A stretch of 64,000 nucleotides of DNA from an uncultured Bacilli bacterium (GCA_944332295.1 CALVJR010000004.1:4157-68156); one strand, 5' to 3'. Shown: positions 1,311 to 49,549, counted from the stretch's first letter. Program-made: numbers and translations. Notes: generated from the sequence alone by a model not told the origin.

Positions 1311-1677
1311 TTTTTCTTTCTATTTATATACTTTTAGAAAAAGTAGAATCTAAAAAGTCTTATTTATCTTAAGCGAATCCCGAAATTTTTTGATGACTTT
1401 TTCGTACTCCAAATTCATCAAAAAAGTTTTAATTTTACTGGTGTAAAGATAATTTTCTTCGTATAATAAAGATGAGTAATTTATATAACAGATCGTGAAC
1501 TACCATGGAAAGCTTATTAGAAACGGGACTGTGGTAATTAGGACTTCGTCTCCAAAACCACTGTTGGGAGTTCGATTCCGATTAATTAATACTACAACTT
1601 TTTATTTCTGCATAATCGAAAGTATGAGTTTAAAATATAAGTACTAAATCATTATAAAAGCAATTTGGAGGTTTCTT

Positions 1678-4011: not shown

Positions 4012-7000
4012 ATTCATTATTAAATTTTAGTAATTCTCTTATGTCGTCCACAGATAAATTTTGGAAGCTTTGATATTCATCACCATCATTTTCAATTAAT
4101 TTATCACTCAGTATTTTTTTCTTTTCTTGTAAATCTAATATTTTTTCTTCTATTGTTCCTTTTGTAATTAATTTAATTACTTCTACAGTGTTTTTTTGTC
4201 CAATTCTATGTGCTCTATCAGTAGCTTGATTTTCTGCTTGTGGATTCCACCATAAGTCTAGATGAATTACGATATCTGCACTTGTAAGATTTAATCCTGT
4301 TCCGCCACTTTTTAACATAATTAAGAACACATTGGTATCATCCATGTTAAACTTATCTACTAATTCTTGGCGCTTTTTGCTACTAACAGAACCATCTATT
4401 ACATAGCTTGTTATGCCTTCTATATCTAGCTCATTTTTAACAATATTTAATGCTGTCTTAAAACTTGTAAACAATAATATTTTATGTCCATTACTTATTG
4501 CTTCACTAACTACATCTATTAAGTGATTTATTTTTGATGAAGTTTTTGTAAAATTATCAAATATAATTTTGGGATCAATGCATACTTGTCTAAGTCTGGT
4601 TAAAAGTGTTAAAATCTGCATTTTATTTTTGGTAAATCCTGCTTTTATTAGTTCTTCCATTTCTTTTTTTGTCTGTTCAACTAATGCAGCATATATTTTC
4701 TTTTCTTCCTCACTCAAATCTATATAAATATTATTTTCAATTTTATCTGGTAAATCTTTTAATACTTCATTTTTCTTTCGTCTTAAAATAAATGGAGCCA
4801 CCTGATTTCTTAATTTACTAAGAACTAAATTTGTAATATCATCAAACTCTTCTCCGATTTTATACTTTTCCTTAAATTTTGATTTATTAGAAAGAAATCC
4901 TGGCATAATATAGTCGAATATGCTCCATAATTCTAAAATAGAGTTTTCAATTGGTGTTCCTGTTAGGGCAAGTTTTACTTCGCTATTAATACTTTTTACT
5001 GCTTTTGTTAACATGGCTGTTGGATTTTTTATATTTTGTGCTTCATCTATAATCATAACTTTAAAATTCATTTCTTTATAGATATCTAAATCTTCTCTTA
5101 ATAGCCCGTAACTTGTGATATATACATTGCCCTCATACCCAGATAATTGTTTATGACGTTCTTTCTTTAATCCCGTAAATATTCTTCTTTTAATATTATC
5201 ACTAAATTTTTTAAATTCGTTATCCCAATTATACACTAGTGCTGTTGGTGTTACTATTAATATTTTAGCTTTCTCGTCTTTTACTTCTTCTAATACCTTT
5301 TTAACAAATATAATTGTTTGTAGACTTTTACCAAGGCCCATTTCATCAGCTAGTATTCCTCCAAGATTACATTTATAAAGATTATATAGCCATTTTACTC
5401 CTTCTTTTTGATAAGGTCTTAATAATTTTTCTTCTTCTTTAGAGAAAACTACTGGAGCATTTTTATACTCCTTAAAATTCTTAATAAATGAATCAAATAA
5501 AGTATTAGTTCTAATGAATCTATTTTTATTTCTTAAACTGTCTAGATAAAGTGCTCTGAATTTAGGAATTTCACCACTATTTTCTTCTAGCTCTAAATCT
5601 TCTTTTAACTCTTCTAATTCTTTTACCGATGGATCAAGTAAGTCTAAGATATCTCCACTTTTTAATCTGTAATATTTTTTCTTACTCTTTAGGCTTAGAA
5701 AAATATCTTCTAACTCATCAGTATTAACATTATCTAATTTAAATTCATAATTTATGATATTATCTTTTCCTATACTAAAACTAGTAGTACCTTGAATTTT
5801 TCGAATTAGATTCGTATTTTTTAATTTTTCACTAGTCAACACTTCATATTCTTTGGCAAGTTCTTCTAATCCATTTTCCATGAAATCAACTATTTCATCT
5901 ATATCATAAAGCATTAGATTCTCATCAAAACCATATTTTTGGATTTCTAGAAAAACACTTCTTTCTAACTGTCTATCTCTTACTAGTTGTTTATCATCTT
6001 TATCAAAATAATTAATTTCTATATCTTCATAATTAAAAATAATTTTACACTCTATATATTCTTCCAATATATCAAAATATAGTTTTACATTAGGCGTTTT
6101 TACAATCACTAAGTCATCTACAGTATCATCTAATATTACTTTATCTTTAATGCTGGGAATTAGATAATCTTTAAATTCTGAGAAGCTATCAGAAGAAAAT
6201 GTCAAACTATTTAAATTTTCGTCTAAAATCTTACTAGCAATAATTTTTTCCACTTCATTTAATTGATAAATTCCTTTATTATCTATTAAATAACTATAAT
6301 CATCAGACAGTGACTGTAATGTTGTTAAATCATAGTCTATATTTAATATGTGGATATCATCCTCTTTTGTTATCTTATAATTAAATGGTAGGCCCTTGAT
6401 GACGGATAGTTCCTTATTTATATAAGGTGATTCTACATATATACTATCAACAATTGAAAATAAGCTATCTAATTTATTTTTGTTTAATGTTATAGAAGAG
6501 TCATATCGATAGGATTTATAATAGCACATTTCTATAAAGTTCAATAGTTTTTTAGAAGTTTCATTGAAATAATAATCTTGATTATTGTAGATAAAATCTT
6601 TTCCAAATTTTACTGAACGATTATTATGGTAACTTTCAATAAAGCTATTTACTTTATTTCCTAATACATAAAGTTTTTTATCTCCTACCTTGAATCTTAA
6701 ATCATATTCTTCTGTTTCTTCATAATCATAATAGTTCATATATTTTTCTAGTTTTAAATAAGGAACTATTTTAGCTTCTTTTTTTATGATGTTTTTCTTT
6801 AAAGATGCTTGTTTTATTTCATTTAAAAATTCTATTACTTTTCTTTGGCTTTGCTCTTTTTTATCGATTAGAAAAAGATCATTTTGAAATTTAATTAAAA
6901 CTGCTGCAACGTGTTTACAAGAATCTGTTAATAAGAATTGAGGACATGTGCAACTTGTATTTATTATTTCATCTTCTTCATCTATATCAATTCTTACTAC

Positions 7001-7878: not shown

Positions 7879-8421
7879 GTGACTAAGACACAAAGTAAGA
7901 TTCAGCTTTTTTTAAGTACTGATACTGAATATTATGAAATTGTAAAACCAATATTAGAACATCCAGAAATTCTTAAAAGAAAAACGTTTGTACACCATGA
8001 AAGTTGTAGTGTTTATGAACATTGTTTAATTGTTTCTATCATCTCTTATCTCTGGGCAAAGAGATTAAACTGGGATTATCGAAGTGCTGCGATAGGTGGA
8101 TTATTACATGACTTTTATGATGAACCATGGCAAACTGCTGACCATAAGGCTATCTCTGGAAAAAAGAAATTGAGAGAAAAGCACGGTTTTGTTCATGCTA
8201 GACAAGCAGCAAAAAATGCAGCTTATTACTTTCCTGAGCTTGTTACAGAAAAAGTGGATAACATTATTAGAAGACATATGTTTCCTTTAAATATTGTTCC
8301 TCCTAAATATAGAGAGGCTTGGCTTGTTACTATGGCAGATAAATATACTTCTTTAGATGTTTTTAAATCTCCTAAAGAATGGCCCAAATATTTAGGATTA
8401 TCAAGGAATAGGCAAAGTTAA
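7879..8421 (+). CDS. HD-domain phosphohydrolase
   Basis: H...HD signature (VYEHCL ... GGLLHDFYD). GTG 7879 with GGAG eight nt upstream is preferred over the TTG at 7831. Confidence 0.65.
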   Translation: MTKTQSKIQLFLSTDTEYYEIVKPILEHPEILKRKTFVHHESCSVYEHCLIVSIISYLWAKRLNWDYRSAAIGGLLHDFYDEPWQTADHKAISGKKKLREKHGFVHARQAAKNAAYYFPELVTEKVDNIIRRHMFPLNIVPPKYREAWLVTMADKYTSLDVFKSPKEWPKYLGLSRNRQS

Positions 8422-8462
8422 TACCAAAAAATAAGTTCTTGTGTTAGAACTTATTTTTATAT

Positions 8463-9515
8463 TTATAGTACTTTACATACCTTTTCTTGAATTTGATCTA
8501 ATCCTGTTTTTTCTGTTTCTACGATTGATACTACTTCTGTATTTTCAAAAATATTGCTCATATCTTCAGATAAATCTTCTTGATTACTAGAAAAAGTAAA
8601 TTCATAATATTTTCCTTCTTCTATATTGTTATTTATTTCTCTTGGTATCGTTACTGTTTCTGCTCCTGCTTTTTGAAATTCAGTTAATGTTACATGTAAA
8701 TATCCCTCATCATTACTTTCTATTATTTTTTCAACTCGATATGTTTTAGTAAACTGACAACTATCTTCTATTATTATAGAACTTATAAAATCATATATTT
8801 CGTCTTCTGTAAAATTATTAAAGCTTATGATATATTTTTTGTCATTTATTAGTAAGGTTACTTCTTGTACCGTATCATTTACATTTAAAATATACCCTGG
8901 ATAGTCGCCAGTTATTTCTGTTATGCTTTTTATTTTAGGTATGGTAATCGTTGTTAGGTAGTGTAATTCATATCTTCCTTTTATATCATTAATATTATCA
9001 AATAAAGATACTTTTTTCGCATAATCTCTTCCCAAAAAATCTAATAATTCTAGGTCATTTGTTATGTTGTTTTTTTCTAGATATGCTTTTCTTTTTTCGG
9101 CACTTTCTATATCTTTAGGAAGTTCTTCATCAGAGTCCATAGAGCCATAAATTGTTATTTGATCATTTGTAAACATTGATACAAAAGTCTCCATAGTACT
9201 AATACTAATCCATTTCTTTTCCGCTTCATTTTTATATTGCATGATAGGATAGGTACTATCTATTTCTTCTTTTGTATATCCTTCAACAATATTTTTAAAT
9301 TTAATATTTTGAAAATTTGTATATTCTTCTTCTGATAATTGTTGATTATTTATTGTTACAGTTTCTTTATTGTTAAAACTTTCTATTATTTCTTGGTAAG
9401 TATTTCCAAGATTTGCGACATTATATTTATTTAAAATATATGTTTTATAGCCAATATAACCTGCTACTATTAAAATTATTACTATACCTACTATTATCAC
9501 TACTTTTTTTATCAT
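8463..9515 (-). CDS. membrane-anchored hypothetical protein
   Basis: Single N-terminal TM (VVIIVGIVIILIVAGYIGY), long extracytoplasmic part, no motif recognised. Confidence 0.5.
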   Translation of the reverse strand: MIKKVVIIVGIVIILIVAGYIGYKTYILNKYNVANLGNTYQEIIESFNNKETVTINNQQLSEEEYTNFQNIKFKNIVEGYTKEEIDSTYPIMQYKNEAEKKWISISTMETFVSMFTNDQITIYGSMDSDEELPKDIESAEKRKAYLEKNNITNDLELLDFLGRDYAKKVSLFDNINDIKGRYELHYLTTITIPKIKSITEITGDYPGYILNVNDTVQEVTLLINDKKYIISFNNFTEDEIYDFISSIIIEDSCQFTKTYRVEKIIESNDEGYLHVTLTEFQKAGAETVTIPREINNNIEEGKYYEFTFSSNQEDLSEDMSNIFENTEVVSIVETEKTGLDQIQEKVCKVL

Positions 9516-37239: not shown

Positions 37240-37272
37240 AAAAAGATTGCTTCTTAGGAAGCAATTTTTTTA
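37240..37272. terminator. bidirectional terminator
   Basis: ATTGCTTC-TTAG-GAAGCAAT flanked by A-run and T-run. Confidence 0.6.
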
Positions 37273-38202
37273 TGGAAGAATTAACTCTTGACCAATAGAT
37301 AGTAGATTGGATGTTAAATTATTTAATAATTTTATCTCTTCTACACTGGTATTATTATCTTTAGCTATTGACCATAGACTGTCACCTTTTTGAACTATGT
37401 ATGTTTTCTTTAATTCTTTTTTAGGAATTTTTAATTTGTCACCAATTTGTAGATTTACGGTTTCTAAATTGTTAATTTCAATTAAATCATCTACTGGTAC
37501 ATCGTATTTTTGAGAAATTAACCATAGACTATCCCCTTTTACTACCGTATAAATTTCATATTCCTCATCTTCTGGTATATCTAATTTTGGTACTTTTAAT
37601 TGTTGTCCAATATACAAATTATTACTTGTTATATTATTTAGTCTTTTTAATTCGTCTACTGTTATATCATATTTTCTGGCAATACCGTATAATGTATCTC
37701 CTTTTTGGACTGTATAAGTTTCATAAGTTGGTGTGATTGCTGTTACAGGGATAAATAATACTTGCCCTATCTGAAGTAAGTCTGAAGTTAAATTATTTAA
37801 TCTTTTTAATTCTGTAACCGTTGTATTAAACTCGCTTGCAATTTTTGATAAGGTATCTCCTTTTACTACAGTATATATATTATTTTCTGTACTCATACCT
37901 GGTGGAATATAAGTATAGCCTCCATAATCAGCGATTGCTTTTACTACACCTTCTACATAATCAATTAAATTATTTTGTAGCTTTTGTTGGTCTGCAGCAT
38001 TATCAATAAAACCATATTCTACTAAAAGTGATTGCATTGGTGTTGTTTCTCTAATAATATAGTAATAATCTTTACTAGGATCTTCTGGTAACCTTCTTTG
38101 ATAAATTTTTCTCATCTTTTGACCTGCATCACCAATATTTTCTAGTGCCATACTAGCTAATGTATCATCATTGCGAAGCGCATAGACAATTTCAGCACCT
38201 TC
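37270..38202 (-). pseudogene. 3' fragment of a split N-acetylmuramoyl-L-alanine amidase gene (end of the Amidase_3 domain plus four LysM repeats)
   Basis: The frame is open upstream of the ATG at 38151 and reads EGAEIVYALRNDDTLAS. It continues with LLVEYGFIDN and four LysM repeats of the form Y-T/I-V-x-KGD-T/S-L...IGQ. There is no own start or RBS at the true N-terminus. Confidence 0.85.
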
Positions 38203-38216
38203 TCCTCCTGGTGATA

Positions 38217-38227
38217 GTCATTGTGTA
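38217..38227. repeat. sub-terminal inverted repeat arm (left)
   Basis: GTCATTGTGTA is the exact reverse complement of 49250..49260. Confidence 0.7.
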
Positions 38228-38236
38228 GTTAATTTA

Positions 38237-38914
38237 TTATTCTTCGATTTCTTCTAATATACCCTCTATCAAATATTCATATAATACATCACTAACTTTT
38301 TGTGTACGTAATCCTGTATCTATATCCAATTGTTCCGTTGCAACACTCCCTGTTCCATTCCAATAAGCTTTTGCAATTCTATCTATAGAATTCTTATCAA
38401 AAGTAGAAATATCACAATTCCACATTCTTGTTACGATTTCCATATTACATTTAGCTATTTTTATACAGGAATCCAACACGCTATTAGTTTTCTTCAACCT
38501 AAATTTTTTTACTTTTTTTAAATTCCACCCATACCATTTACTAGCTTTTTTACAACTATCGTAATCTCCAAAAGCATAAACACACGAAAATCTTGATGGA
38601 TAATTTTTATAATCACTCACCCTTATATATTCTAATATATATTCCGTATTATATCCATTAACAACAGTCATACTATGAGATGATGGACTACTAAAAGTTG
38701 TTTTATTAGGAATAAATGGAGCATAAACGATATTCCCACAGATAAAATCTTCTATTTTATCTGGTTCTGCTGTAAGGTTTCTAAAACCACTGGATACAAT
38801 GGTTTTATTTAATTTGTAGTTATGAAAATTAATCTGACTATATGAATTTTTTCCTTGTCCAATAAAAATATAAAATACTTTGGGAGCTTCTTCATTAATA
38901 TTTAATAAATTCAT
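38237..38914 (-). CDS. hypothetical protein (225 aa), last gene of the element
   Basis: Clean ORF. No domain recognised. Confidence 0.5.
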   Translation of the reverse strand: MNLLNINEEAPKVFYIFIGQGKNSYSQINFHNYKLNKTIVSSGFRNLTAEPDKIEDFICGNIVYAPFIPNKTTFSSPSSHSMTVVNGYNTEYILEYIRVSDYKNYPSRFSCVYAFGDYDSCKKASKWYGWNLKKVKKFRLKKTNSVLDSCIKIAKCNMEIVTRMWNCDISTFDKNSIDRIAKAYWNGTGSVATEQLDIDTGLRTQKVSDVLYEYLIEGILEEIEE

Positions 38915-39096
38915 ACCTTTATATCACCTTTTTACTTCATTTCAATTTTTTTATCAAATTCTCATATTATTCTTTGCTTTTCCTTATTCATGTATTCTTT
39001 ATCAATTATTCTTGCAAACTTCTTAAAAAGCCATATTTCTTTTTTAGTATAGTAATTATTTACAATAGTTCTAGTTTCTGCTCTCAATGATGATCC

Positions 39097-40023
39097 CTAC
39101 AATAATTCTAAATATTTCTTCAACATTTCAACTTCTAACTTAGTAACTAGCTTAACAAAATCAGTATAATTACCAGTTGTATGTGCTTTATCTAAAGCTT
39201 CATAATATTTTAATCTTGATTCTTTTTTTATAATTACAGGATTATATCCACTATTCATTAAGTCTAAATTCATAAGTAATCTTGAAGTTCTTCCATTGCC
39301 ATCTATAAATGGATGTATTTTAACTAACTCACCATGTAATAGCGCTGCTTGAATTATCGGATGATATTCATTCCAAGTATTATAAGTTAATATTAATTTT
39401 TCCATTAATTCGGGAACTTTTAAATAATCTGGTGGAATATGTGTTGCGCCTTTAATAGTTACATTTTCTTTTCTATATCTTCCAGCATTTTCGTTATCAA
39501 TATCTTTTAAAATTAACTGATGAATATTTTTAATATTCCATTCACTAATTGGTTCATTATCTTTTACTAGATCATCCAAAAATAAAATTGCTTTTTCATG
39601 ATTAATCGCTTCTAAATGCTCTTTAATAGATTTTCCACCAACAGTTATTCCTTCTAAAACAACCTGTGTTTCTCGTAATGTTAAAGTATTACCTTCAATT
39701 CCATTACTATTATAAGTCCATTCTAAATTAATAGATTCTCTTAAAGATTTTAAAGTTTCTTTAGGCATTGGTCTTTTACTATCTAATTTTCTTTTTAAGC
39801 TATCTACTTCATCAAAATAATTATCGTCTAAATCAATAATAAATTTATTATCATCTGGTTTAATTATTCTTTTATCAACAGGTTTATCAGCATCAATTGG
39901 AATATTCCAACTATTACCTACTTTAACAGCACCTTCAATTCTTCCATCTTGTAATAATTGTCTTATTCTTCTTTCACTAATATTCCATTTTTCAACAGCT
40001 TCTTTTGTAGTCATAAATTCCAT
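39097..40023 (-). CDS. Fic-family protein with N-terminal HTH
   Basis: Fic motif HPFIDGNGRTSRLL, inhibitory-helix-like SNGIEGN ([S/T]xxxE[G/N]), and an N-terminal MerR/excisionase-like HTH TTKEAVEKWNISERRIRQLL. ATG 40023 follows GAGGTG. Confidence 0.85.
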   Translation of the reverse strand: MEFMTTKEAVEKWNISERRIRQLLQDGRIEGAVKVGNSWNIPIDADKPVDKRIIKPDDNKFIIDLDDNYFDEVDSLKRKLDSKRPMPKETLKSLRESINLEWTYNSNGIEGNTLTLRETQVVLEGITVGGKSIKEHLEAINHEKAILFLDDLVKDNEPISEWNIKNIHQLILKDIDNENAGRYRKENVTIKGATHIPPDYLKVPELMEKLILTYNTWNEYHPIIQAALLHGELVKIHPFIDGNGRTSRLLMNLDLMNSGYNPVIIKKESRLKYYEALDKAHTTGNYTDFVKLVTKLEVEMLKKYLELL

Positions 40024-40042
40024 ACTTTTCACCTCGATTACA

Positions 40043-40071
40043 ATTATACCGGAATCGGTAGTATTTGTCAA
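40043..40071 (-). promoter_or_regulatory. consensus sigmaA promoter of the fic gene with an embedded palindrome
   Basis: On the minus strand: TTGACA, 17 nt, TATAAT. The spacer contains the palindrome TACCGATTCCGGTA (40047..40060). A related CCGATAACGG sits just upstream (40082..40091). Confidence 0.6.
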
Positions 40072-40266
40072 TATTTTTATTCCGTTATCGGTATATTAAC
40101 TTATGAATTAGCGACAAGTTGTCGGGAATTTTTAACTTCTCGCCAAGTTGGCACGAAGTAATGTTGATAAGTCTTTTAACTTCTCGACAACCTGTCGCGA
40201 AGTTAAATTTGTGATACATACGGGTTTTAGTATTATGTACTATTCTGTGCATATTGCACAGAATTT

Positions 40267-41841
40267 TTAAATCATGAATCTATAGAAAATTTCAATATTT
40301 TTATCTTTATCAATTTCAATTTTATCAATTAATGTTTGTAAAAGTTCTCTAGTAGGTTTCTTTATATCAATTAATTCTCTTATTTTCTTTTCATATTCTT
40401 CTAATTCTTTTGCTTTAATACTTTCTTTTTTAGTGCTTTTATATTTTTCTAAATCTATCTGAGCTTTATTTAAAAGTCGTTCTGTTTCTTGAGATAATCT
40501 TTTATAAGTAACATCTGATATATTACCTCTAAATTTATCTTCATATAACATATCTATTTTTGATATATATTCTTTTATCTTGTTTTCTAAGTATCTTATC
40601 TTTTCTTTATTATCTTCCTTTCTACTATTTTTATCTGCTATTTCCTTTGATAAGACCCTAGAATCGATTTGTTTAATATAATTTTTACAAGTTGTTCTTA
40701 CTACATCAAGCAATGCTTCTTCTAATTTATCATAAGGCATAAAATGTGGTTCACATAATCTTCTTCTTGGATCTCTTGCATATTTATTACAATTAATAGT
40801 CCAATAATTATGATTCTTTCGGTAAGTAATAGTTAGTGCATTTCCACATTCTTTGCAAAATAGTAAATTTTCAAATAATCTTTTTTCTCTATGACTAACG
40901 CTTACATTAGTTCTTTTTACATTACCTTGTATTCTTTCAAAAGTTAATTTATCAACCAATGGTTCGTGTGTACCAGGAACTATGTCCCAATTGCTTTTTG
41001 GAAGAGCTTTTTTCTTTTTAGATTTATAATTTACTTTAGTCTGTGTACTTTGAACCATATCACCTGTATACATTCTGTTTTTTAGTATCTTCTTAACTGA
41101 TGATATAGTCCATTGTTCATTATATCTCATTTTAGAATTAGGATTTTTACGTTTTAAACTGCTAGGTGTTTTAATTTTATTGTCATTTAAATATGAAGTT
41201 ATATCAGATAATCCTACACCATTAGCAGCCATTTCAAATATTTTTTTAACTACTGGTGCATATTCTGGGTCAGGTATTAAATGTCCTTTTTCTTCTGGGT
41301 CTTTCATATATCCATAACTAGGATTACTTCCAATAAACTTTCCTTTCTTTCTTTTATCATTTAAAACACTTCTAATTTTAATAGAATTTTGCCTACTATA
41401 ATAATCATTACATGCAATAATGAATGTTGATGAATCATTACTTGCTTGATTAATTGCACTATCATAGTTTTCTTGCAACGATATAAATCTTATATTATTT
41501 TCTGGAAAAAAGTTTTCAATATAATATCCTGTCATAACATGATCTCTACCTAATCTTGATAAATCTTTTACTATAACTAAATTTACCATTTTATTTTTAA
41601 TATCTTCAATCATTTTAGTAAATCCAGGTCTTTCAAAATTAGTACCGGAATATCCATCATCAACATATTCTCCAACAAATATAAAACCTTTTTCTTTTAC
41701 GAAGTTCATTAATAAATTTCTTTGATTAGTAATACTTTCACTTTCTGATTCATAAGATTTTCCTTCGTCTGCTTCCGATAATCTTATATATATGACCGCT
41801 CTATAAATATTATTTGGCATTTGCATTAATCCGTTATACAT
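40267..41841 (-). CDS. large serine recombinase (TnpX/TndX-like)
   Basis: N-terminal resolvase domain (AVIYIRLSEAD, VKDLSRLGRD), a recombinase domain, a zinc ribbon CKECGN...C, and a C-terminal coiled coil. AAGGAG RBS. Confidence 0.9.
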   Translation of the reverse strand: MYNGLMQMPNNIYRAVIYIRLSEADEGKSYESESESITNQRNLLMNFVKEKGFIFVGEYVDDGYSGTNFERPGFTKMIEDIKNKMVNLVIVKDLSRLGRDHVMTGYYIENFFPENNIRFISLQENYDSAINQASNDSSTFIIACNDYYSRQNSIKIRSVLNDKRKKGKFIGSNPSYGYMKDPEEKGHLIPDPEYAPVVKKIFEMAANGVGLSDITSYLNDNKIKTPSSLKRKNPNSKMRYNEQWTISSVKKILKNRMYTGDMVQSTQTKVNYKSKKKKALPKSNWDIVPGTHEPLVDKLTFERIQGNVKRTNVSVSHREKRLFENLLFCKECGNALTITYRKNHNYWTINCNKYARDPRRRLCEPHFMPYDKLEEALLDVVRTTCKNYIKQIDSRVLSKEIADKNSRKEDNKEKIRYLENKIKEYISKIDMLYEDKFRGNISDVTYKRLSQETERLLNKAQIDLEKYKSTKKESIKAKELEEYEKKIRELIDIKKPTRELLQTLIDKIEIDKDKNIEIFYRFMI

Positions 41842-42062
41842 TTACTACTCCTTTCTTTTTTGCATAACAATCAAAGCCATTTAAAGTATAATACTTTATT
41901 TTCAAACTGACGAATGTGCTAATTTTTAATTAGTACACTTTTTATATATTTATTTAACAAATCTACCAAATTAAGAGCATTATCATCTTTTCTAAAAGTT
42001 TCCGTAATTTTAAACATAAGCCACCTCATAAAATTTTATGAGTGTCTTTTTCATTTTATTTC

Positions 42063-42578
42063 TTATTCCTCCTCGTATATATCACTTAATAATTTTTTTA
42101 ACTCTTCTTGTTCTTCAAGAGTTGCTTCATTTTTAGGTATTAATTTACCATGCCAGTATTCATTACCAACTTCATCTTTATAATAAATACTATCTTCTTT
42201 TTTATTTAATTTATTATTATATTGTTTAAATTTTTGTTTATAGTCTGTATTAAAATTATTTTTAATACTTTTTAATTTTAAATTTAAGACCTCTGATAAT
42301 TTAATTATACGCTTTGAATTATTTTTACTTGTATTATCATATTTAGTCTTAATATAACCAAAGGTGGCTAAATTACTTATACTTTTTGATACAGTTACTG
42401 ACGTTACATCATAAATATCACAAAAATATCTATTAGTAGCCCAACAATAACCATTCTTCTTACAAAGACTTATTATATGAATTAATAATAATCTTTCTAA
42501 AAAAGTTAATCTATTATCTCTTAATACAGATTTTAAAATAAATACATTTATGAATTCTTCTTTATCCATAATAATCAA
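42063..42578 (-). CDS. winged-helix DNA-binding protein (phage/plasmid replication- or regulator-like)
   Basis: LLLIHIISLCKKNGYCWATNRYFCDIYDVTSVTVSKSISNL resembles wHTH domains of mobile-element regulators. Confidence 0.45.
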   Translation of the reverse strand: MIIMDKEEFINVFILKSVLRDNRLTFLERLLLIHIISLCKKNGYCWATNRYFCDIYDVTSVTVSKSISNLATFGYIKTKYDNTSKNNSKRIIKLSEVLNLKLKSIKNNFNTDYKQKFKQYNNKLNKKEDSIYYKDEVGNEYWHGKLIPKNEATLEEQEELKKLLSDIYEEE

Positions 42579-42713
42579 TATATAAGATATATCTTAAGAT
42601 AATAAGAGTGCACTTTTAAATGTTATTTTCCCTAGGTATTTTCATCTTATAACAAATTAAAATAAAAAGAAATTGTACAAAATATGCAAAAGGAGTACAT
42701 TTCTGTACTCCCA

Positions 42714-43169
42714 CTACAATGATTCTATATCTTTAAACTCATAATTTATGTTTTCTTTTAACAATCTTTTTAATATAGACATCAATTGCATAATTATGTA
42801 ATTAATTTCATCAAAAGATACCTTAATATCAATAACATCTTTATTCGGATGTAACAATTGATTTCTCAATCCATCATCACTGTAATATTTATTTAAAATT
42901 TGAATAGTTTGTTCTGGCAAAACTTCTGTTTTATTATTTTGAATTATTGAAAGTAAAGTCTTCATTATACCTTGTTCATAATGTTCAACATCTGCATCGG
43001 GCACTAATTTGTATATCTCCAAAACCATTCTTTCAATTAAAGGAAAGCTATAATACAAACTCTCAATAGTTCCAGAATTTAAAAAGTCTGTATCTATTTC
43101 ACCAATTATATTTTTAGTATTATCATCTTCCAATGCTTTTACAAAATCTAAATATGTAAATCTAACCAT
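42714..43169 (-). CDS. HEPN-like protein (151 aa) with Rx4H motif
   Basis: GLRNQLLH (R102..H107, nt 42866..42849, verified codon by codon). All-helical-looking. Overlaps the upstream gene by 22 nt. Confidence 0.5.
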   Translation of the reverse strand: MVRFTYLDFVKALEDDNTKNIIGEIDTDFLNSGTIESLYYSFPLIERMVLEIYKLVPDADVEHYEQGIMKTLLSIIQNNKTEVLPEQTIQILNKYYSDDGLRNQLLHPNKDVIDIKVSFDEINYIIMQLMSILKRLLKENINYEFKDIESL

Positions 43170-43654
43170 TCTATCACTTCCTTTATAGTTTTCAAATCCA
43201 ACTTTGTTAATTGGTTATCAAATATTAATTTACTATTCCCTATTTCTTTATTATATTTAAAATTATAATATTTTGAGAAATCTAATCTTTCATCACTTTT
43301 ACTTTTAATCTTATTAATCAAATATTTAAATCCTTGAAAATTAATATTATTATTTTCAGACAAATTATACATCATTCTATAAATATCATGATCATAATTC
43401 TCTATTTCTTCTAAAGATAAATATGTTTCCAAAATTAATTTTGTTTTAAAAAACATTTCGATGTAAAAAAACAAATTAAAGAATGTTAATGGTTTAATTA
43501 TTAAATTATTTGTACAACAATTTAAAATGGACAATGAATTATCTTTTAAATATATATAATTATCTATTATTTCTTGTCTTAGCTGTCTAGTTTTTTCTGA
43601 AATAGTATCGGAAATATCCGGTAAATACTCTAATTCAAATGCTTTATTTTTCAT
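43148..43654 (-). CDS. hypothetical protein (168 aa), possible classical HEPN fold
   Basis: EMFFKTKLILE...YDHDIYRMMYNL and YYNFKY resemble the E..lKa.l...tHdL..L / Y...RY layout of classical HEPN domains. This is a weak, by-eye match. Confidence 0.4.
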   Translation of the reverse strand: MKNKAFELEYLPDISDTISEKTRQLRQEIIDNYIYLKDNSLSILNCCTNNLIIKPLTFFNLFFYIEMFFKTKLILETYLSLEEIENYDHDIYRMMYNLSENNNINFQGFKYLINKIKSKSDERLDFSKYYNFKYNKEIGNSKLIFDNQLTKLDLKTIKEVIEWLDLHI

Positions 43655-45404
43655 TCAATAACCAACTTATAAAAATTAGCCCTGAAAAGGTCACTACTAA
43701 TGATGTTACTAATTGTTCATTAATTAGCGTCCCATGCATAATATTATTTCTTAAATTTAAACCAGATTTCTCGTACAAAATATAATTTAAATACATTATT
43801 CCATCAACTTTCGACTCATCATCTTTATAAATTTCAAATAAATTATTTAAATTTGTAAAACCATCTTTACAAACTGCAAGATTATTTCTTTCCAAAATTT
43901 TTATAACATTAACTTCTATTGATAATATATTACTAACAACTATAGCATATTCGTTATTAAAATCATAACCAATTGATTCTTTTAATTCCTTAATTATGCT
44001 TTTAAAATCTGATTTAGATATTGTTGAAATCAAAATATTTTGATGCAATTGAAATGTTGTAGATAAATATTTTAGTAATTCTTCATAAAAGTTTGAACTT
44101 AATTTATTTAATAATTTTGGATGAGTTTCAGTATATTCAATACCTTTTTCATCAAAATATTTTTTAAAGTTATCATCATTAACTTTTTTTCTATCTTCCA
44201 AACGTAATGAATAAACTTCTCTCTTTGAATCTATAGTATATTTAGAAACCAAACTCAGCATAGGATGTTCTGCATATGATTCTAAAGCCTGATATAATTC
44301 TGATGTAAAATTTATTTTTGAGGCTGCATATAGCTTAAATTTGTTATCTAATAAGCTTTTTCTATATTCTTCTACTTCTTTTGTTGGAACTTTATGTTCA
44401 TATTTATATTCATGCATTTCAGACTTCACATAGTCATTATCAGAAACAATATATCTCTTTAGACTTAATAAATGCGATAAACATTCTTGAATTTTTCCCT
44501 TTTGATTATCCTGGTAACTTTCTATATTTTTTGAAAGATACAATAATTCTTTTTTCAAATTTTCAATTTCTGATAACCCTTGTATAAAACTATAATCTTT
44601 ATTTTTAAGTTTATTTACTAATTTATTAGTTACATTAATATACATATTAATTATTTTGTTATTTGAATCTAAATCTAAACAATTATCTTTATCTAATTCA
44701 AATATTACTTCTTTTGCATAATTATATCCACCAAAAGTATCTAAAGAATCCTTTATATATTCCATATATACATCTATATGTTTTGTCTTTTCAACATCAT
44801 AATATATTATATTAGATATATGCTTTTTGCTTGTAATAAACAATTCTATCAGCTCATTATAGTCTTTTTTCATAGATTTTAAATTATTAAATATTTTACT
44901 TATAATTTCTCCATCTATAAAAATATCATTATCTAAACCAAAATAAATAATTTCTTTATAAAACAAATACAAATCGTTAGGTGTTTCAATGAATAATTTT
45001 TTTCTAACATTTAAACTATCCACGACATTTCTAAAATCATCTTTTGCCAATTTATAATCATTACAATTTGTTTTGTACTCATTTGAATTAATTGTATTAT
45101 TATATGTATACAAAAAATCTTGAATAATATTTTTATAATATAATAAATCGTTATTATCAGCATAAAGATACAAATAAAATATAATTTCTAAATCTTGTTT
45201 TGATATTCTTATTTCATGACTATTAAAAATAGTAAATAATCTATTATCGTGATAATAAAAAGAATTATATATTCTTAAAAACTTTCTAAACTCCAACAAA
45301 AACATTTCTCTACTACTTTGATTATTAAAAGTATAATCAAAATTCTCATTTAATTGATTACCAGAAAGTTTATCTTCTAGAAATTCCTTTAATATTTTTT
45401 TCAA
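43644..45404 (-). CDS. large hypothetical protein (586 aa) with C-terminal Rx4H HEPN-like motif (DUF4209-like)
   Basis: GLNLRNNIMHGT (R552..H557, nt 43751..43734, verified) followed by a hydrophobic tail. TTG start with AGGAGG six nt upstream. Confidence 0.5.
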   Translation of the reverse strand: MKKILKEFLEDKLSGNQLNENFDYTFNNQSSREMFLLEFRKFLRIYNSFYYHDNRLFTIFNSHEIRISKQDLEIIFYLYLYADNNDLLYYKNIIQDFLYTYNNTINSNEYKTNCNDYKLAKDDFRNVVDSLNVRKKLFIETPNDLYLFYKEIIYFGLDNDIFIDGEIISKIFNNLKSMKKDYNELIELFITSKKHISNIIYYDVEKTKHIDVYMEYIKDSLDTFGGYNYAKEVIFELDKDNCLDLDSNNKIINMYINVTNKLVNKLKNKDYSFIQGLSEIENLKKELLYLSKNIESYQDNQKGKIQECLSHLLSLKRYIVSDNDYVKSEMHEYKYEHKVPTKEVEEYRKSLLDNKFKLYAASKINFTSELYQALESYAEHPMLSLVSKYTIDSKREVYSLRLEDRKKVNDDNFKKYFDEKGIEYTETHPKLLNKLSSNFYEELLKYLSTTFQLHQNILISTISKSDFKSIIKELKESIGYDFNNEYAIVVSNILSIEVNVIKILERNNLAVCKDGFTNLNNLFEIYKDDESKVDGIMYLNYILYEKSGLNLRNNIMHGTLINEQLVTSLVVTFSGLIFISWLLNEK

Positions 45405-45477
45405 TTTTTACCTCCTACTACTAAAAAAAGCGTAATACAAACCCAAAATAATTTAAGCCTGTACTAGCGCCTTTTTA

Positions 45478-46662
45478 TTATCTATTTCCTTTAATACGGT
45501 TATGCGTTCTACATAACATTTGACAATTAATTATATCAGTAGAACCACCCTTACTCCATGCTGTAACGTGGTCAGCATCCATATCTTTATAATCCCATAT
45601 TTTGACTTTATTTGATAAATTTTCAATTACACACATAGGGCAATTAGAAACTGCTTTCAATTTTGCTTCTTGCGTCTGTCTTTCATAAACTGTTTTTTTT
45701 GTCGGCTCATCAAAGATTCTAATATTAAGTAATTTAGTATCTTCTTTTCTACAACCATTTAATATATATTCGTAGCATCCTTTTTTATCGGTAACAAAAT
45801 AATCACTATATAATTCATTTAATTTTTTTGAAATTTCATTTGAATTATAGGGATTCTTATGATATTTTTCGTACATTTTCCCCCAATTTATATATTGCAT
45901 TTCATCTTTTACATCAATGAATATAGTAGAAACCCAATTGATAACATCATTAAAATATGAAGTTAGTTCATTTATATTATCATCATGTCTGTGATTTGCC
46001 ATATATTTTTCAAGATTACCATCTTTTTCCCAATCCTTTGAAACCCAAGATAAAGCAACTTCTAACAAACCTTGTCTTTTTACTTCTACTTTCATATAAC
46101 TCAACCACTTATGTAAATTTGAGTTCTGAGAATTGCTAAATATTTCTTTTGCTTTAGTTATAAAAGTTCCACTATATATAGAATTTAATAGTTCTTGATT
46201 ATTTAGTGGCTTTCCGGCGATATTGATTGTTTTAAACCACTCCTTTATTTCTGATTCATCACCACTACAAATATAAATAGTCAATTCAGTATTATATATT
46301 TTTTCTTGCTTATCTTTAGGCAACGATTCAAATTTATATGGAATATCATTTTCATCTATCCATGCGAATTTATTTGTTATATATCTACCTATGCTAGTTA
46401 TTCTTTGCTGTCCATCAAGAATTTCATATTTATCTCTTTCTGTTTCAACAAAATATATTAGCCCTATCGGATATCCTTTTAATAAAGAATCAATAACAGC
46501 AACGTCATCTTTTCCGTTTGCATAAATATAATTTCTTTGATATTCTGGCTGAATAGTTAATTTCCCAGCCCAACCAAACAACCCTTTTTCTTCTGATTCA
46601 CTATATTGAAATCCTTCGCAAATTTGTCTAATAGTTAAATCTGTTCTTAATCTAGTTTTCAT
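45478..46662 (-). CDS. DUF262 (ParB/Srx-like) domain protein with C-terminal HNH nuclease (GmrSD-like)
   Basis: [13 protein letters not shown]262 signature. C-terminal Cys pairs plus [12 protein letters not shown]...[18 protein letters not shown] motif. Confidence 0.75.
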
Positions 46663-47773
46663 CTACATCCTCTACTTTCTGAATTAATATTCTATCATAT
46701 ATTTGTTTACCATTAATATATCCTCTATGACGTTGAGATGGAATGATCCTTATTCTTTCAACTTCTGGTGTATTATCCCCAGAATGTGTGTGTCCTATTA
46801 TTCTAAATTGTTTAGGATTATGAAACTTAAGAAAAGTTATTGGAACCCCCATAACACCAACATAATCAGATGGAATCGCATCATATCTTGGGACTTCTAA
46901 TGCATCATAATTATCAAATTTTGGATAAGTATTTATTCCGTAATCTTTTTCTAACTTTTTTATTAATGGCTTGTTATATCTTAAATTATCTTGCATCGTC
47001 ATCAAACTTAGCGTTGTATGACGTCTTTTTAAATCAATATTAGTATACCAACATATATTTCCCATACTACGCCATTTTTGTCCCTTTTCATCTATCCAAA
47101 ATCTTGTTTCTCTAGGTTCCGAATCTTCGGGAACTTTAAATGCCATATCGCCAGCATATTTTCCTAACCACATCTTACCATCTCTTACAAGAGGAAATGT
47201 TTCTTTAGTAGTCGCATCATTTTCATTACCAATTATAATAAATTGCTTATTTGATTCTATTAACCAAGCTAGAAATTCTCTAAATAATGAAAACGGTGGA
47301 TTTGTTATTATAATATCTGCCTCATCCCTCAAAGTTTTGACTTCATCAGATCTAAAATCACCATCACCTTCAAGGTAATCCCATTCTAAATCATTAATAT
47401 CAATTCTTCCAGATTTATTTTTATCTCTATCTAATGTAAATATTTTACCATGTGAATTTGTTTTTGTTTTATCATATTTAGGACTTTCTTGCTCAAATAA
47501 TGATAATTGAACAAAAACTGATGTTTTTTTATCATTAGCATAACTCGTACTAATAAGTTTCTTTAATCCTAATAATTCAAAATTCTGTGCAAAATATCTT
47601 GTAAAATTACTCCATTCCGGATCATCGCACGGAAGTAATATTATTTTATCCTTGAAAACGTCTGGATTATATTCTAAATAAGCATTCATTTCTTTTTCTA
47701 TATCTGAGTATTCTGTGTAAAACTCGTCATCCTTCTCTTTTTTTGCTCTCTTTAAACTTTCGTTATTAGCCAT
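46652..47773 (-). CDS. N6-adenine DNA methyltransferase
   Basis: Catalytic IIITNPPFS (NPPF, motif IV) and an N-terminal DEFYTEY segment. Overlaps the downstream gene by 11 nt. Confidence 0.75.
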
Positions 47774-47777
47774 TCTA

Positions 47778-48434
47778 TCACTTCCTATTAACTAAAATTT
47801 TCTCTAATTTGTGTTCTAACTGATATAAAGTATTGGAACCGGATAAGTCTCCACCTAAGTCTTTGAGAGCCGAATATAATATTTGGCGTTTGGACGGATT
47901 TGAATTGTTTGGGACTTCTTTATCATTTTCTTTTTCGTAAATACCCAATGTTCCATCTTCTTTTGTTTTTGAATAATAATATTTACCGGTTAAACTAGAA
48001 TGAAACTGAATATTTTTAAAATGATGTCTATTTTTAGATAGTGATAATGCTTCTTTTTCTTCTTCTATTTCTTCTTTAGTTTCTTTCCACAAATGTAATC
48101 TATCAGTTGTACCATTAAATTCTGCCATACTTTCAAATGCAGAATATATTTCTTCTGGTTTAATATGATAAAATTCTCTTACTCTTATTTTATCACCTAT
48201 TTTTTCTTTACTTCTTAATTCTGGATTTAAAGTATCAATAAAGTTATGTAATTTTTTATCGGTTAATCTTTCCATAACATCAAATGTTGCATATATATGA
48301 AAGGAAAAAGGTACTGCTTCAGAATTATTTAACTGTTTAACTCTAGCATCGACATCATCTGCATAACCAATTTTTACATATTCTGGGAATGATGGATTGG
48401 TTAATATATAAATTACCCCACATTTTTGCTTCAT
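47778..48434 (-). CDS. T5orf172 / GIY-YIG-like domain protein
   Basis: GVIYILTN...VKIGYADDVDARVKQLN matches the T5orf172 (GIY-YIG superfamily) N-terminal pattern. AGGAG RBS. Confidence 0.65.
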   Translation of the reverse strand: MKQKCGVIYILTNPSFPEYVKIGYADDVDARVKQLNNSEAVPFSFHIYATFDVMERLTDKKLHNFIDTLNPELRSKEKIGDKIRVREFYHIKPEEIYSAFESMAEFNGTTDRLHLWKETKEEIEEEKEALSLSKNRHHFKNIQFHSSLTGKYYYSKTKEDGTLGIYEKENDKEVPNNSNPSKRQILYSALKDLGGDLSGSNTLYQLEHKLEKILVNRK

Positions 48435-48468
48435 GTTTTCACACTCCTAAAGATATAAATACATGTAT

Positions 48469-48477
48469 ATTATAGCA
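48469..48477 (-). promoter_or_regulatory. extended -10 promoter element for the cargo operon
   Basis: The minus strand reads TGCTATAAT about 35 nt upstream of the ATG at 48434. The -35 is weak. Confidence 0.4.
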
Positions 48478-48838
48478 TATAATTTGACATTTTTGGATTT
48501 TGTCATTAAATTACATACCATTTTTCAATTTTTGCTATATAATTATTTCAAAATTACGGTTTGAGATATTCCCCATAATTTTGCAAATGGCGGGAGTAAA
48601 TTTGCAGTGCTGGCTAAGACAAGATTTTACTAACCTGAAAGAGTCACCAATTTTTTTAAATTATTTAAAATCAATTTTTATCAAAAAAAGACTCTATTTA
48701 ATTTTTTTAAATAGAATCTTACATTTTAAATTTGTTTTTTCAATTTTAGTGGACTAATTTTTAAAATAATTAAGTTATATTTTATTTTTAAAAATTCTTC
48801 AAATTATTCATCTTTTATATCTTTTTTACCACTTATCA

Positions 48839-49195
48839 TCATGATTCTCCATAAATTAGTTCTTTCAAAACTATTTCTTCAGCTATATTTTTTATGTTAT
48901 TCATCTTACCTACCCATAAAATTTGATTATTTTGTTTCAACCTTTCATCAACATTTTCTTTTTCAGCAAGTAATAATATTAAATTATTTATTCTACTATT
49001 AGCAATAATATCGACATCATGTAGATATTCATTTAACTTATCATTCATAAGTAATTCAGTATATAATCCTCTTTTATTCTTCTTTAGATACTCTAATTTA
49101 AGCAATCCATACTTTCCTATATTAAATCTTTCTTTATCTTCTAATTTCAAATTTGGTAATAAATAATCACCTTTTCTAGTGTAACTAATATTCAT
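48839..49195 (-). CDS. tnpV: TnpV-like transposon protein
   Basis: N-terminal ISYTRKGDYLLPNLKL and GKYG..L.YLK resemble TnpV of Tn4451-family elements, from memory of that family. Confidence 0.6.
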   Translation of the reverse strand: MNISYTRKGDYLLPNLKLEDKERFNIGKYGLLKLEYLKKNKRGLYTELLMNDKLNEYLHDVDIIANSRINNLILLLAEKENVDERLKQNNQILWVGKMNNIKNIAEEIVLKELIYGES

Positions 49196-49249
49196 AACAT
49201 TTCTCCATTTCTTTCTATTTTTATTCAGCTTTAATTGTTATACATTCGT

Positions 49250-49260
49250 TACACAATGAC
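49250..49260. repeat. sub-terminal inverted repeat arm (right)
   Basis: TACACAATGAC is the exact reverse complement of 38217..38227. Confidence 0.7.
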
Positions 49261-49261
49261 C

Positions 49262-49549
49262 ATCCCCACCTCCGGAATTGATATGATTCGATATTAAAAT
49301 AGCATCGGGATCTCCATTAAACGCTTCGTTTGCTCTTCTTAATCTTTCTGTTCTAGAAATATCTTCATCTGTTGTTTTTACTGATACTACAGGAATACCT
49401 AACTCTTGTAATCTTCTTGTCATATAATTTGCTGCTTGTAAGTTAAAATCTTTCTCTTTTAAATTTCCACTGATTGCTCCAGGGTCACTTCCTCCATGAC
49501 CAGAATCTACTACAACACCCGTTATTTTCCTTTCGTTCATCTTTTTCAC
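49262..49549 (-). pseudogene. 5' fragment of the split N-acetylmuramoyl-L-alanine amidase gene (first ~95 aa of Amidase_3)
   Basis: VVVDSGHGGSDPGA...EKDFNLQ...ILISNHINSGGG, then the frame runs into element DNA (DGHCVTNV, stop at 49238). No signal peptide. Confidence 0.85.

Follow-up and report, generated by a model that had tools for sequence, protein, structure and literature searches.

A set of overlapping genes in a 64,000-nucleotide (nt) stretch of DNA from an uncultured Bacilli bacterium (GCA_944332295.1 CALVJR010000004.1:4157-68156; this whole stretch is called the window below) represents a candidate antiphage cassette built around predicted HEPN ribonuclease (RNase) domains. We propose that these genes, here named A, B and C, constitute a self-contained, horizontally mobile abortive-infection cassette that is linked to restriction–modification (R-M) systems and in which B is not always present, a reading to which we assign a probability of roughly 0.55. 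The architecture of the cassette, the conservation of its motifs, its co-inheritance and its genomic context are direct observations and are described first.

The cassette comprises three open reading frames (ORFs) whose frames overlap. Their positions in the ORF listing of the window, and that of a ribosome-binding site read from the sequence, are as follows:

43644..45404, minus strand: gene A, 586 amino acids (aa), TTG start.
43148..43654, minus strand: gene B, 168 aa.
42714..43169, minus strand: gene C, 151 aa.
45411..45416, minus strand: Shine-Dalgarno sequence AGGAGG, 6 nt before the TTG of A.

Genes A and B share 11 nt (43644..43654), B beginning inside the final codons of A, at ATGAAAAATAA. 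Genes B and C share 22 nt (43148..43169), and a GGAAGTG stretch precedes the start of C. These three co-oriented ORFs, their lengths and both overlaps agree with an earlier description made from the DNA alone (the sequence-only reading), as do the Rx4H motifs that it placed in A (R552 and H557) and in C (R102 and H107). Upstream of A, the pentamer GAGGT is invariant in a six-locus alignment, in which the TTG of the window aligns with the ATG of the other loci. The G+C content is roughly 21% over the trio versus roughly 28% in the window; with this low value, and with a distribution that is patchy and rare, the cassette looks foreign.

To define the conserved unit, 27 related loci (referred to by L numbers) were gathered from genomes and metagenomes, 25 of them with downstream sequence. 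Their sources are gut metagenome-assembled genomes labelled Bacilli, Clostridia, Mollicutes/Tenericutes and ‘Muribaculaceae’. Gene C comes immediately after A in every one of the 25 loci that extend downstream, and searches seeded with C found an A-sized gene upstream every time. Among 19 non-redundant loci, reading frames overlap in 18, and the pairwise identities of A proteins track those of C proteins (r = 0.92), a correlation that none of 2000 Mantel permutations equalled. In 16 loci B separates A from C; these include the very distant L021 (whose A protein matches the profile with E = 4.5e-11) and L022. It is absent from 9 of the 25 (L008-L012, L023/24 and L026/27), where C abuts A. Because B is missing from about a third of the loci, the conserved core is the A+C pair: A and C form a co-inherited, translationally coupled core, and B is a widespread but dispensable third gene. 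The claim of a co-inherited, overlapping unit stands, with A+C and not the trio as its conserved part.

Protein A belongs to a rare family of uniform size (about 580-630 aa). A word-indexed search returned 87 clusters, all of about 584-589 aa, an exhaustive hidden Markov model search found only 116 relatives among 1.84 billion protein representatives, and tblastn with A gave nothing in 50,697 phage and 72,556 plasmid records. The AlphaFold2 model (pLDDT 88.4) is all-alpha plus two small hairpins. Its N-terminal region (roughly residues 1-480) is large and helical and has no match to any known fold or family, and the predicted catalytic features of A, like those of C, lie towards the C terminus:

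43647..43952, minus strand: C-terminal HEPN-like domain of A, about residues 485-586, delimited by a DUF4209 match and the AlphaFold2 helices.
43734..43751, minus strand: predicted RNase active-site motif of A, R552-N553-N-I-M-H557, from conservation in 49 sequences.
42849..42866, minus strand: predicted RNase active-site motif of C, R102-N103-Q-L-L-H107, from conservation in 52 sequences.

Residues 536-570 of A match the Pfam family DUF4209 (E = 8.5e-5) at a score of 23.0 bits, where the cut-off is 22.3 bits. The same position scores above the cut-off in the distant A relatives P0248 (23.8 bits) and P0313 (22.5 bits), and just below it, at 18-19 bits, in L008, L009, L010 and L011. Within this region the segment GLNLRNNIMHGT contains R552 and H557, which are invariant among the 49 A sequences, and N553 is at least 90% conserved, so that the C terminus carries the HEPN signature Rx4-6H, whose arginine is typically followed by a polar N, D or H (PMC3710099). 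When A is shuffled, Rx4H arises in 23% of shuffles and RNx3H in 2.6%. The C-terminal helices of the model span residues 485-506, 515-525, 530-543, 551-556 (the motif-bearing helix) and 566-583. The last of these is hydrophobic and was considered as a C-terminal membrane anchor; this was rejected because the helix falls within the DUF4209 match and closes the modelled domain. The profile match, which is marginal but reproducible across divergent relatives, suggests that A ends in a DUF4209-type HEPN domain, in agreement with what had been read from its sequence.

Protein C, whose family comprises 109 clusters, exhibits a sharper pattern of conservation. Its sequence DGLRNQLLHPN contains R102 and H107, which are the only invariant arginine and histidine among 52 sequences of the family; together with N103 they are among just twelve invariant positions. 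The motif R102/N103/H107 is kept in the distant L021 and L022 copies, and here too the arginine of the Rx4-6H arrangement is followed by a polar residue. Shuffled C sequences contain Rx4H in 5% and RNx3H in 0.3% of cases. Because the motif residues are conserved across the A and C families, the Rx4H motifs of both proteins are lifted above the chance level. Two glutamates, E46 and E51, are also invariant in a long helix (residues 35-54), where the spacing is E51-x2-K54 and not Ex3K.

The AlphaFold2 model of C (pLDDT 88.6, pTM 0.84) consists of a long helix, two shorter ones, a short motif helix and a long C-terminal helix, a layout that parallels the C terminus of A. A Foldseek search of this model against the PDB, which is the structural check proposed with the sequence-only reading, returned HEPN proteins as 12 of the 28 top matches, none of them significant (best E = 0.66, TMq 0.22-0.47). 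The HEPN entries include Csm6 of three species (5yjc/8jbc/6tug/5fsh), 2hsb, 4nqf and the IRE1 KEN domain 6w3c. Foldseek with C against the viral BFVD library gave nothing, sequence-profile searches of the PDB with A, B or C found no match, and no HEPN family recurred among 25 C members scanned at E values up to 10. The HEPN assignment of C made earlier thus gains an invariant RNx3H and a list of structural neighbours dominated by HEPN entries, but no significant match, and we consider support for a HEPN fold of C moderate, not decisive.

The motif regions of A and C had appeared similar enough in local context to be paralogous domains. Profile–profile comparison does not bear this out. Aligned by hhalign, A and C give a probability of 1.4%, with a sole aligned stretch of 11 columns that lies away from the motifs, which are left unaligned. 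The same method finds no relationship between B and A and a probability of 1-6% for B and C. Because hhalign finds no relationship in either comparison, we reject both the paralogy of the A and C HEPN regions and the idea that B is a degenerate copy of C.

Protein B was initially described as resembling a classical HEPN helix pattern, a description that its sequence does not establish: the Rx4-6H motif was sought in B and is absent, no profile matches, and what 13 diverse sequences hold invariant is E66 and K70 (an Ex3K pair), a single histidine, H89, and Y134. A 2013 survey of the HEPN superfamily describes Ex3[KR] as a second HEPN hallmark (PMC3710099), which E66-x3-K70 fits, and the position of H89 upstream of a [KR]133-Y134-[NG] motif recalls the AbiV/AF0298 variant described in the same survey. 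Given these residues, a non-canonical HEPN fold of B is possible. The protein evolves fast, with 27-43% identity where A retains 46-64%, and is possibly an accessory subunit, perhaps regulatory, that is dispensable in some lineages. Because B is unproven as a HEPN protein and is optional, the cassette is less ‘HEPN-rich’ than had been claimed.

The cassette is flanked by strong RNA hairpins, one of which has counterparts in related loci:

45424..45476, minus strand: terminator-like stem-loop bounded by an A-run (5′) and a U-run (3′) (-24 kcal/mol, z = -4.7, 0 of 200 shuffles as good).
42685..42718, minus strand: stem-loop over the stop codon of C, followed by the U-rich UUUUGCAUAUUUU (-18.2 kcal/mol, z = -4.6, 1 of 200 shuffles as good).
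L001 ~1450..1493, L003 ~7930..7980, L014 ~6517..6561 and L017 ~7928..7980: conserved upstream hairpin in relatives.

The gap between A and the upstream GmrSD_N-HNH restriction gene is indeed 73 nt (45405..45477), as first reported, but the accompanying statement that it holds no obvious terminator does not stand. A consensus terminator scan of 42000..48800 also reported none; this negative was set aside because direct folding revealed the two strong hairpins. The upstream hairpin reaches from just past the restriction gene's stop codon to about 8 nt short of the Shine-Dalgarno sequence of A, and forms the 5′ boundary of the cassette. Its stem arms, GCGCTAGTACA and TGTATTRCGCTTTTT, are conserved 5′ of A in L001, L003, L014-16 and L017, with a variable loop, despite the fact that the gene upstream differs, its product being a restriction enzyme, an ASCH or a NOV_C protein depending on the locus. 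In L025 and L007 this position is taken by other, unrelated hairpins that are also strong and carry U-runs, and L018 has no such hairpin 5′ of A. At the other end, the stem-loop over the stop codon of C is likely an intrinsic terminator that closes the cassette, judging from its fold and U-rich tail.

Only about 20 nt separate the U-run of the upstream hairpin from the start codon of A, and this stretch holds the Shine-Dalgarno sequence. The lack of room for a promoter between hairpin and A argues that the cassette is probably expressed mainly by transcriptional read-through from upstream, at a low level. The upstream hairpin may serve to set the level of expression, to mark the boundary of the cassette or to act as a regulatory RNA.

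In the window, the cassette is carried by a mobile element whose main parts are as follows:

38152..49237, minus strand: element of about 11 kb with all genes on the minus strand, splitting an Amidase_3/LysM cell-wall hydrolase gene.
49238..49549, minus strand: 103-aa N-terminal fragment of the Amidase_3/LysM protein.
37270..38151, minus strand: 293-aa C-terminal fragment of the Amidase_3/LysM protein.
45478..48434, minus strand: co-oriented upstream module T5orf172 / methyltransferase / GmrSD_N-HNH, outside the cassette.
47778..48434, minus strand: T5orf172 protein (PADLOC PDC-S57, E = 4.5e-56).
45478..46662, minus strand: GmrSD_N (DUF262)-HNH restriction enzyme (PADLOC type II REase profile matched end to end, E = 2.6e-80).
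40267..41841, minus strand: large serine recombinase.
39097..40071, minus strand: Fic protein with an N-terminal helix-turn-helix (HTH) domain (SoFic/PDC-S04, E ~1e-35).
38237..38914, minus strand: DUF2441 protein.

Upstream of the GmrSD_N-HNH gene lies a gene for an EcoRI-type adenine methyltransferase (MTase_II, E = 7.2e-100), with which the restriction enzyme is paired instead of working as a modification-dependent type IV enzyme. The element also carries an HTH_36 replication-initiator-like protein and a 118-aa ORF that sits where TnpV lies in related elements and is assigned by this position only. L014, L015 and L017 have the Amidase_3/LysM gene interrupted at the identical place by elements whose cargo differs in part. 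Related elements inserted at this site retain A-B-C and vary what surrounds it: in L014-16 the R-M module has given way to a C5 methyltransferase, a 370-aa protein and an ASCH protein, and in L017 other cargo is exchanged. The cassette thus moves as a unit, its identity being kept while the adjoining R-M module is swapped within the same serine-recombinase element.

Two further features of the element were seen. In being inserted into a hydrolase gene it resembles the intervening elements found within sporulation genes of Bacillota. In L014 (10020..10115) and L017 (11395..11490) a 31-codon ORF separates the HTH_36 gene from that of the serine recombinase, and the matching gap in the window is 41842..42062.

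Of 16 independent contexts, about 10 place R-M genes only a few genes away from the cassette, and these belong to five types: I, II, IIL (MmeI), III and IV. This placement, along with the serine-recombinase element and further defence-type neighbours across independent loci (among them DUF4238 and a GHKL-type HATPase_c_3 protein), supports the defence-island and mobile-element setting proposed at the outset. The neighbours include:

L018-20: type I HsdS/HsdR, KAP NTPase and AAA_14-DUF4143.
L003: C5 methyltransferase and NOV_C.
L004: D12 methyltransferase and HNH_2.
L006: two putative C5 methyltransferases (judged by eye) and AbiEi/AbiEii.
L007: type III Res/Mod and ASCH.
L010/11: tyrosine integrase, at the edge of an integrated element.
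L023/24: DUF3644 and an MmeI-type enzyme.
L025: HsdR and GmrSD.
L026/27: HEPN_Cthe2314, HsdR and DUF4268.

Some neighbours recur or stand out individually. ASCH proteins that are 45% identical lie directly 5′ of A in L014 (6136..6510) and L007 (6483..6887), next to R-M systems that are unrelated, with a C5 methyltransferase in L014 and type III in L007; ASCH, a domain predicted to bind RNA, is maybe an occasional fourth component of the cassette. L004 (3536..4618) and L007 (5356..6438), which otherwise differ, each encode a 360-aa protein flanked by the R-M genes on one side and the cassette on the other; the two proteins are homologous (43% identity) and match nothing in Pfam. In L022 the gene after C (8193..9212) encodes 339 aa with FLRNKYFH, an Rx4H sequence, near the C terminus, and is possibly an extra HEPN-like gene.

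In HEPN RNases, among them Csm6, Cas13, RNase L, PrrC and AbiV, the arginine and histidine of the motif are catalytic and activity is metal-independent. Their active sites arise from the pairing of two HEPN domains, and the enzymes are silent until triggered. For the cassette we infer by analogy complex formation, RNase activity, a trigger and phage protection along the following lines. Protein A would join a C-terminal HEPN domain of DUF4209 type to a large helical N-terminal region that serves as sensor or scaffold; C would be a free-standing small protein that bears a second RNx3H active-site motif; and B, where present, would be an accessory and possibly regulatory subunit. Translational coupling would set a fixed proportion of the three proteins, and the terminator-like hairpin directly before the ribosome-binding site of A would keep expression low. 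A and C, plus B where present, would assemble into a complex whose N-terminal A region senses infection or the loss of restriction. Once a phage evades or disables the neighbouring R-M system, the HEPN site or sites would be switched on, and the activated RNase would cut tRNA, rRNA or mRNA and halt translation, so that the infected cell goes dormant or dies ahead of phage release.

A more specific version of this proposal can be put forward, which we regard as speculative and on balance doubtful. A and C might form a split, two-polypeptide HEPN RNase with a composite site to which each contributes one Rx4H motif, much as in the dual-HEPN Cas13. Such an enzyme would serve as a generic guard of R-M systems, dosed through read-through of the terminator that travels with it and firing when restriction is overcome, with B tuning or gating it in some lineages.

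Several results weigh against the abortive-infection reading. Residues ~1-480 of A gave no sensor, ATPase or other known trigger module, and the DUF4209 score of A exceeds its cut-off by only 0.7 bits. Foldseek with full-length A against the PDB yielded no HEPN protein, only generic helical repeats with TM ≤0.22, and the structural matches of C to HEPN proteins are weak (E ≥0.66, TM-scores <0.5). In Pfam, PADLOC, NCBIfam and PHROGs, B has no match and C no significant one. No R-M genes were seen near L002, L005, L008, L010/11, L021 or L022, and a location in defence islands is equally typical of addiction modules.

In one rival reading the genes encode no HEPN enzymes at all, and RNx3H would be a structurally conserved feature of helical cargo proteins of unrelated function that cleave no RNA. 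This explanation draws on the lack of a significant Foldseek match for either protein, the absence of an A–C relation in hhalign, the marginal DUF4209 match and the fact that Rx4H occurs by chance in 5-23% of shuffles. It sits poorly with the motif residues being among the few invariant positions, in C as the sole invariant arginine and histidine, and with DUF4209 being matched independently by seven divergent A relatives. HEPN entries are also strongly over-represented among the top structural neighbours of C, and the R-M context agrees with the published description of the DUF4209 HEPN family (PMC3710099). We therefore regard a non-HEPN identity as distinctly unlikely. An accessory role in R-M, in which the cassette is not autonomous and provides RNA-level regulation or quality control of R-M expression, with motifs that might bind rather than cut nucleic acid, would fit the co-oriented placement immediately 3′ of R-M genes in those ~10 of 16 contexts. 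It would fit too with the lack of promoter room upstream of the A Shine-Dalgarno sequence, transcription probably coming from the R-M operon. A specific molecular partnership is nevertheless hard to reconcile with the data because the partner systems are of unrelated types (I, II, IIL, III and IV) with unrelated enzymes; L002, L005, L008, L010/11, L021 and L022 have no R-M genes nearby, and when it moves the cassette takes along its own 5′ hairpin and 3′ terminator. We consider this role highly improbable.

A toxin–antitoxin (TA) or addiction module that stabilizes mobile elements or islands is an unlikely identity too, despite several features in keeping with it. The toxin would be A or C, acting through its HEPN domain, and the protein partner restraining it would be B, or C as an inhibitory pseudo-dimer partner of A. 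Consistent with this are the serine-recombinase element in the window and in L014-17, the tyrosine integrase beside L010 and L011, and the AbiE and Fic toxin modules among the neighbours; the genes are small, overlapping and as tightly coupled as a TA operon, and B evolves fast, like many antitoxins. Yet B, the most antitoxin-like gene, is gone from about a third of the loci with A and C intact, and the invariant catalytic-type RNx3H of C speaks against a pure inhibitor. The profile libraries reveal no MNT, HTH or other known HEPN antitoxin in the cassette, which also occurs beside type I R-M systems outside recognisable mobile elements (L018-20, L025 and L026). TA and abortive-infection roles can coexist, and the abortive-infection reading and its rivals overlap in part. 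The underlying observation is real, and its interpretation as a defence candidate is reasonable.

The cassette is unnamed in PADLOC, Pfam, NCBIfam and PHROGs (libraries to 2023-2026) and in literature searches, as the sequence-only reading had anticipated, and no source, cluster names included, names protein A, B or C. The 2013 HEPN survey was the sole literature source on DUF4209, a search for ‘HEPN + ERMARD’ gave nothing and PDC-S39, a PADLOC candidate considered below, occurs only in lists. Proteins B and C are new families and the gene architecture is undescribed, but a 2013 publication (PMC3710099) had already described the HEPN family of A and linked it to R-M operons, and for this reason the cassette is less novel than had been claimed.

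If protective, the cassette would represent an uncharacterised HEPN system from gut Bacillota and Mollicutes-like hosts, which are poorly covered in defence catalogues, and would provide a first functional handle on the bacterial DUF4209/C6orf70 branch, the mechanism of eukaryotic ERMARD being itself unknown. Its placement after unrelated R-M types would make layered immunity, in which DNA restriction is combined with RNA-level suicide, tractable beyond the single example of PrrC, and the design of a terminator followed by a ribosome-binding site may serve layered immunity too. The pairing of a large with a small HEPN protein would bear on how HEPN sites assemble and stay silent.

Among known systems, HEPN-MNT modules share with the cassette a small HEPN protein, a tightly coupled operon and residence on mobile DNA. 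Searches of Pfam, PADLOC and NCBIfam found no nucleotidyltransferase (NTase/MNT) match in A, B, C or their immediate neighbours, and the cassette is not HEPN-MNT because it has no such partner; the four profile libraries likewise agree with the earlier statement that an MNT, Cas or ATPase partner is lacking. Cas13 and the Csm6/Csx1 dimers form their site from two Rx4-6H motifs, and the HEPN domains of Csm6 are the best structural neighbours of C, but the cassette has no CRISPR, CARF or guide-RNA parts, and its motifs reside on two polypeptides of very different size whose pairing is hypothetical.

PrrC and RloC are HEPN anticodon nucleases tied to R-M loci, with a catalytic Rx4-6H, that provide a suicidal back-up when a phage neutralises restriction. 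They resemble the cassette in the genetic linkage of HEPN to restriction–modification. Unlike A, for which no ATPase or P-loop family is matched in Pfam, NCBIfam or PADLOC, they have an N-terminal ABC-type ATPase, and because A lacks this domain the cassette is neither of them. PrrC, moreover, is encoded inside a single type Ic R-M operon, to whose enzyme it binds, whereas the cassette, which has a second HEPN-like subunit, is found beside R-M systems of many unrelated types.

AbiD/F, AbiJ, AbiU2, AbiV, the C terminus of AbiA and ApeA share with the cassette a HEPN domain, low-GC Gram-positive hosts, mobile DNA and presumed RNA cleavage. AbiV has been shown to be a dimeric HEPN RNase, and the study that describes it reports a protein–RNA pair unrelated to the cassette (bioRxiv 10.1101/2024.05.05.592566). 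The lactococcal Abi HEPN proteins and ApeA are single proteins or protein–RNA pairs and not a large-plus-small HEPN pair. None of their profiles matches A, B or C in the Pfam and PADLOC scans, and the cassette is not one of these families for that reason.

PDC-S39, a single-gene PADLOC candidate with a 615-position profile, is similar in length to A, and about 30 C-terminal residues align at the RNx3H of A. This tail match covers 33 residues (profile 549-581/615 versus A 534-567/586, E = 0.0087), and a similar short match occurs in 3 of 17 A relatives scanned (E 0.003-0.01) and not in the other 14. The rest of A is unmatched, and PDC-S39 is a single gene versus a cassette of two or three; because no full-length profile match exists, the cassette is not PDC-S39.

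The nearest described entity is the DUF4209 (PF13910) family, the C6orf70/ERMARD-type HEPN family that is spread from bacteria to eukaryotes and occurs in R-M related operons (PMC3710099). Its match to A covers only about 35-80 residues and is marginal, the N-terminal 480 residues of A have no TPR or WD40 repeats, and the obligatory partner C and the accessory B are absent from the published description. What the cassette shares with this family is the C terminus of A, which matches its profile with the arginine and histidine in place, and the linkage to R-M, by which A falls, narrowly, within the sequence tests of the family.

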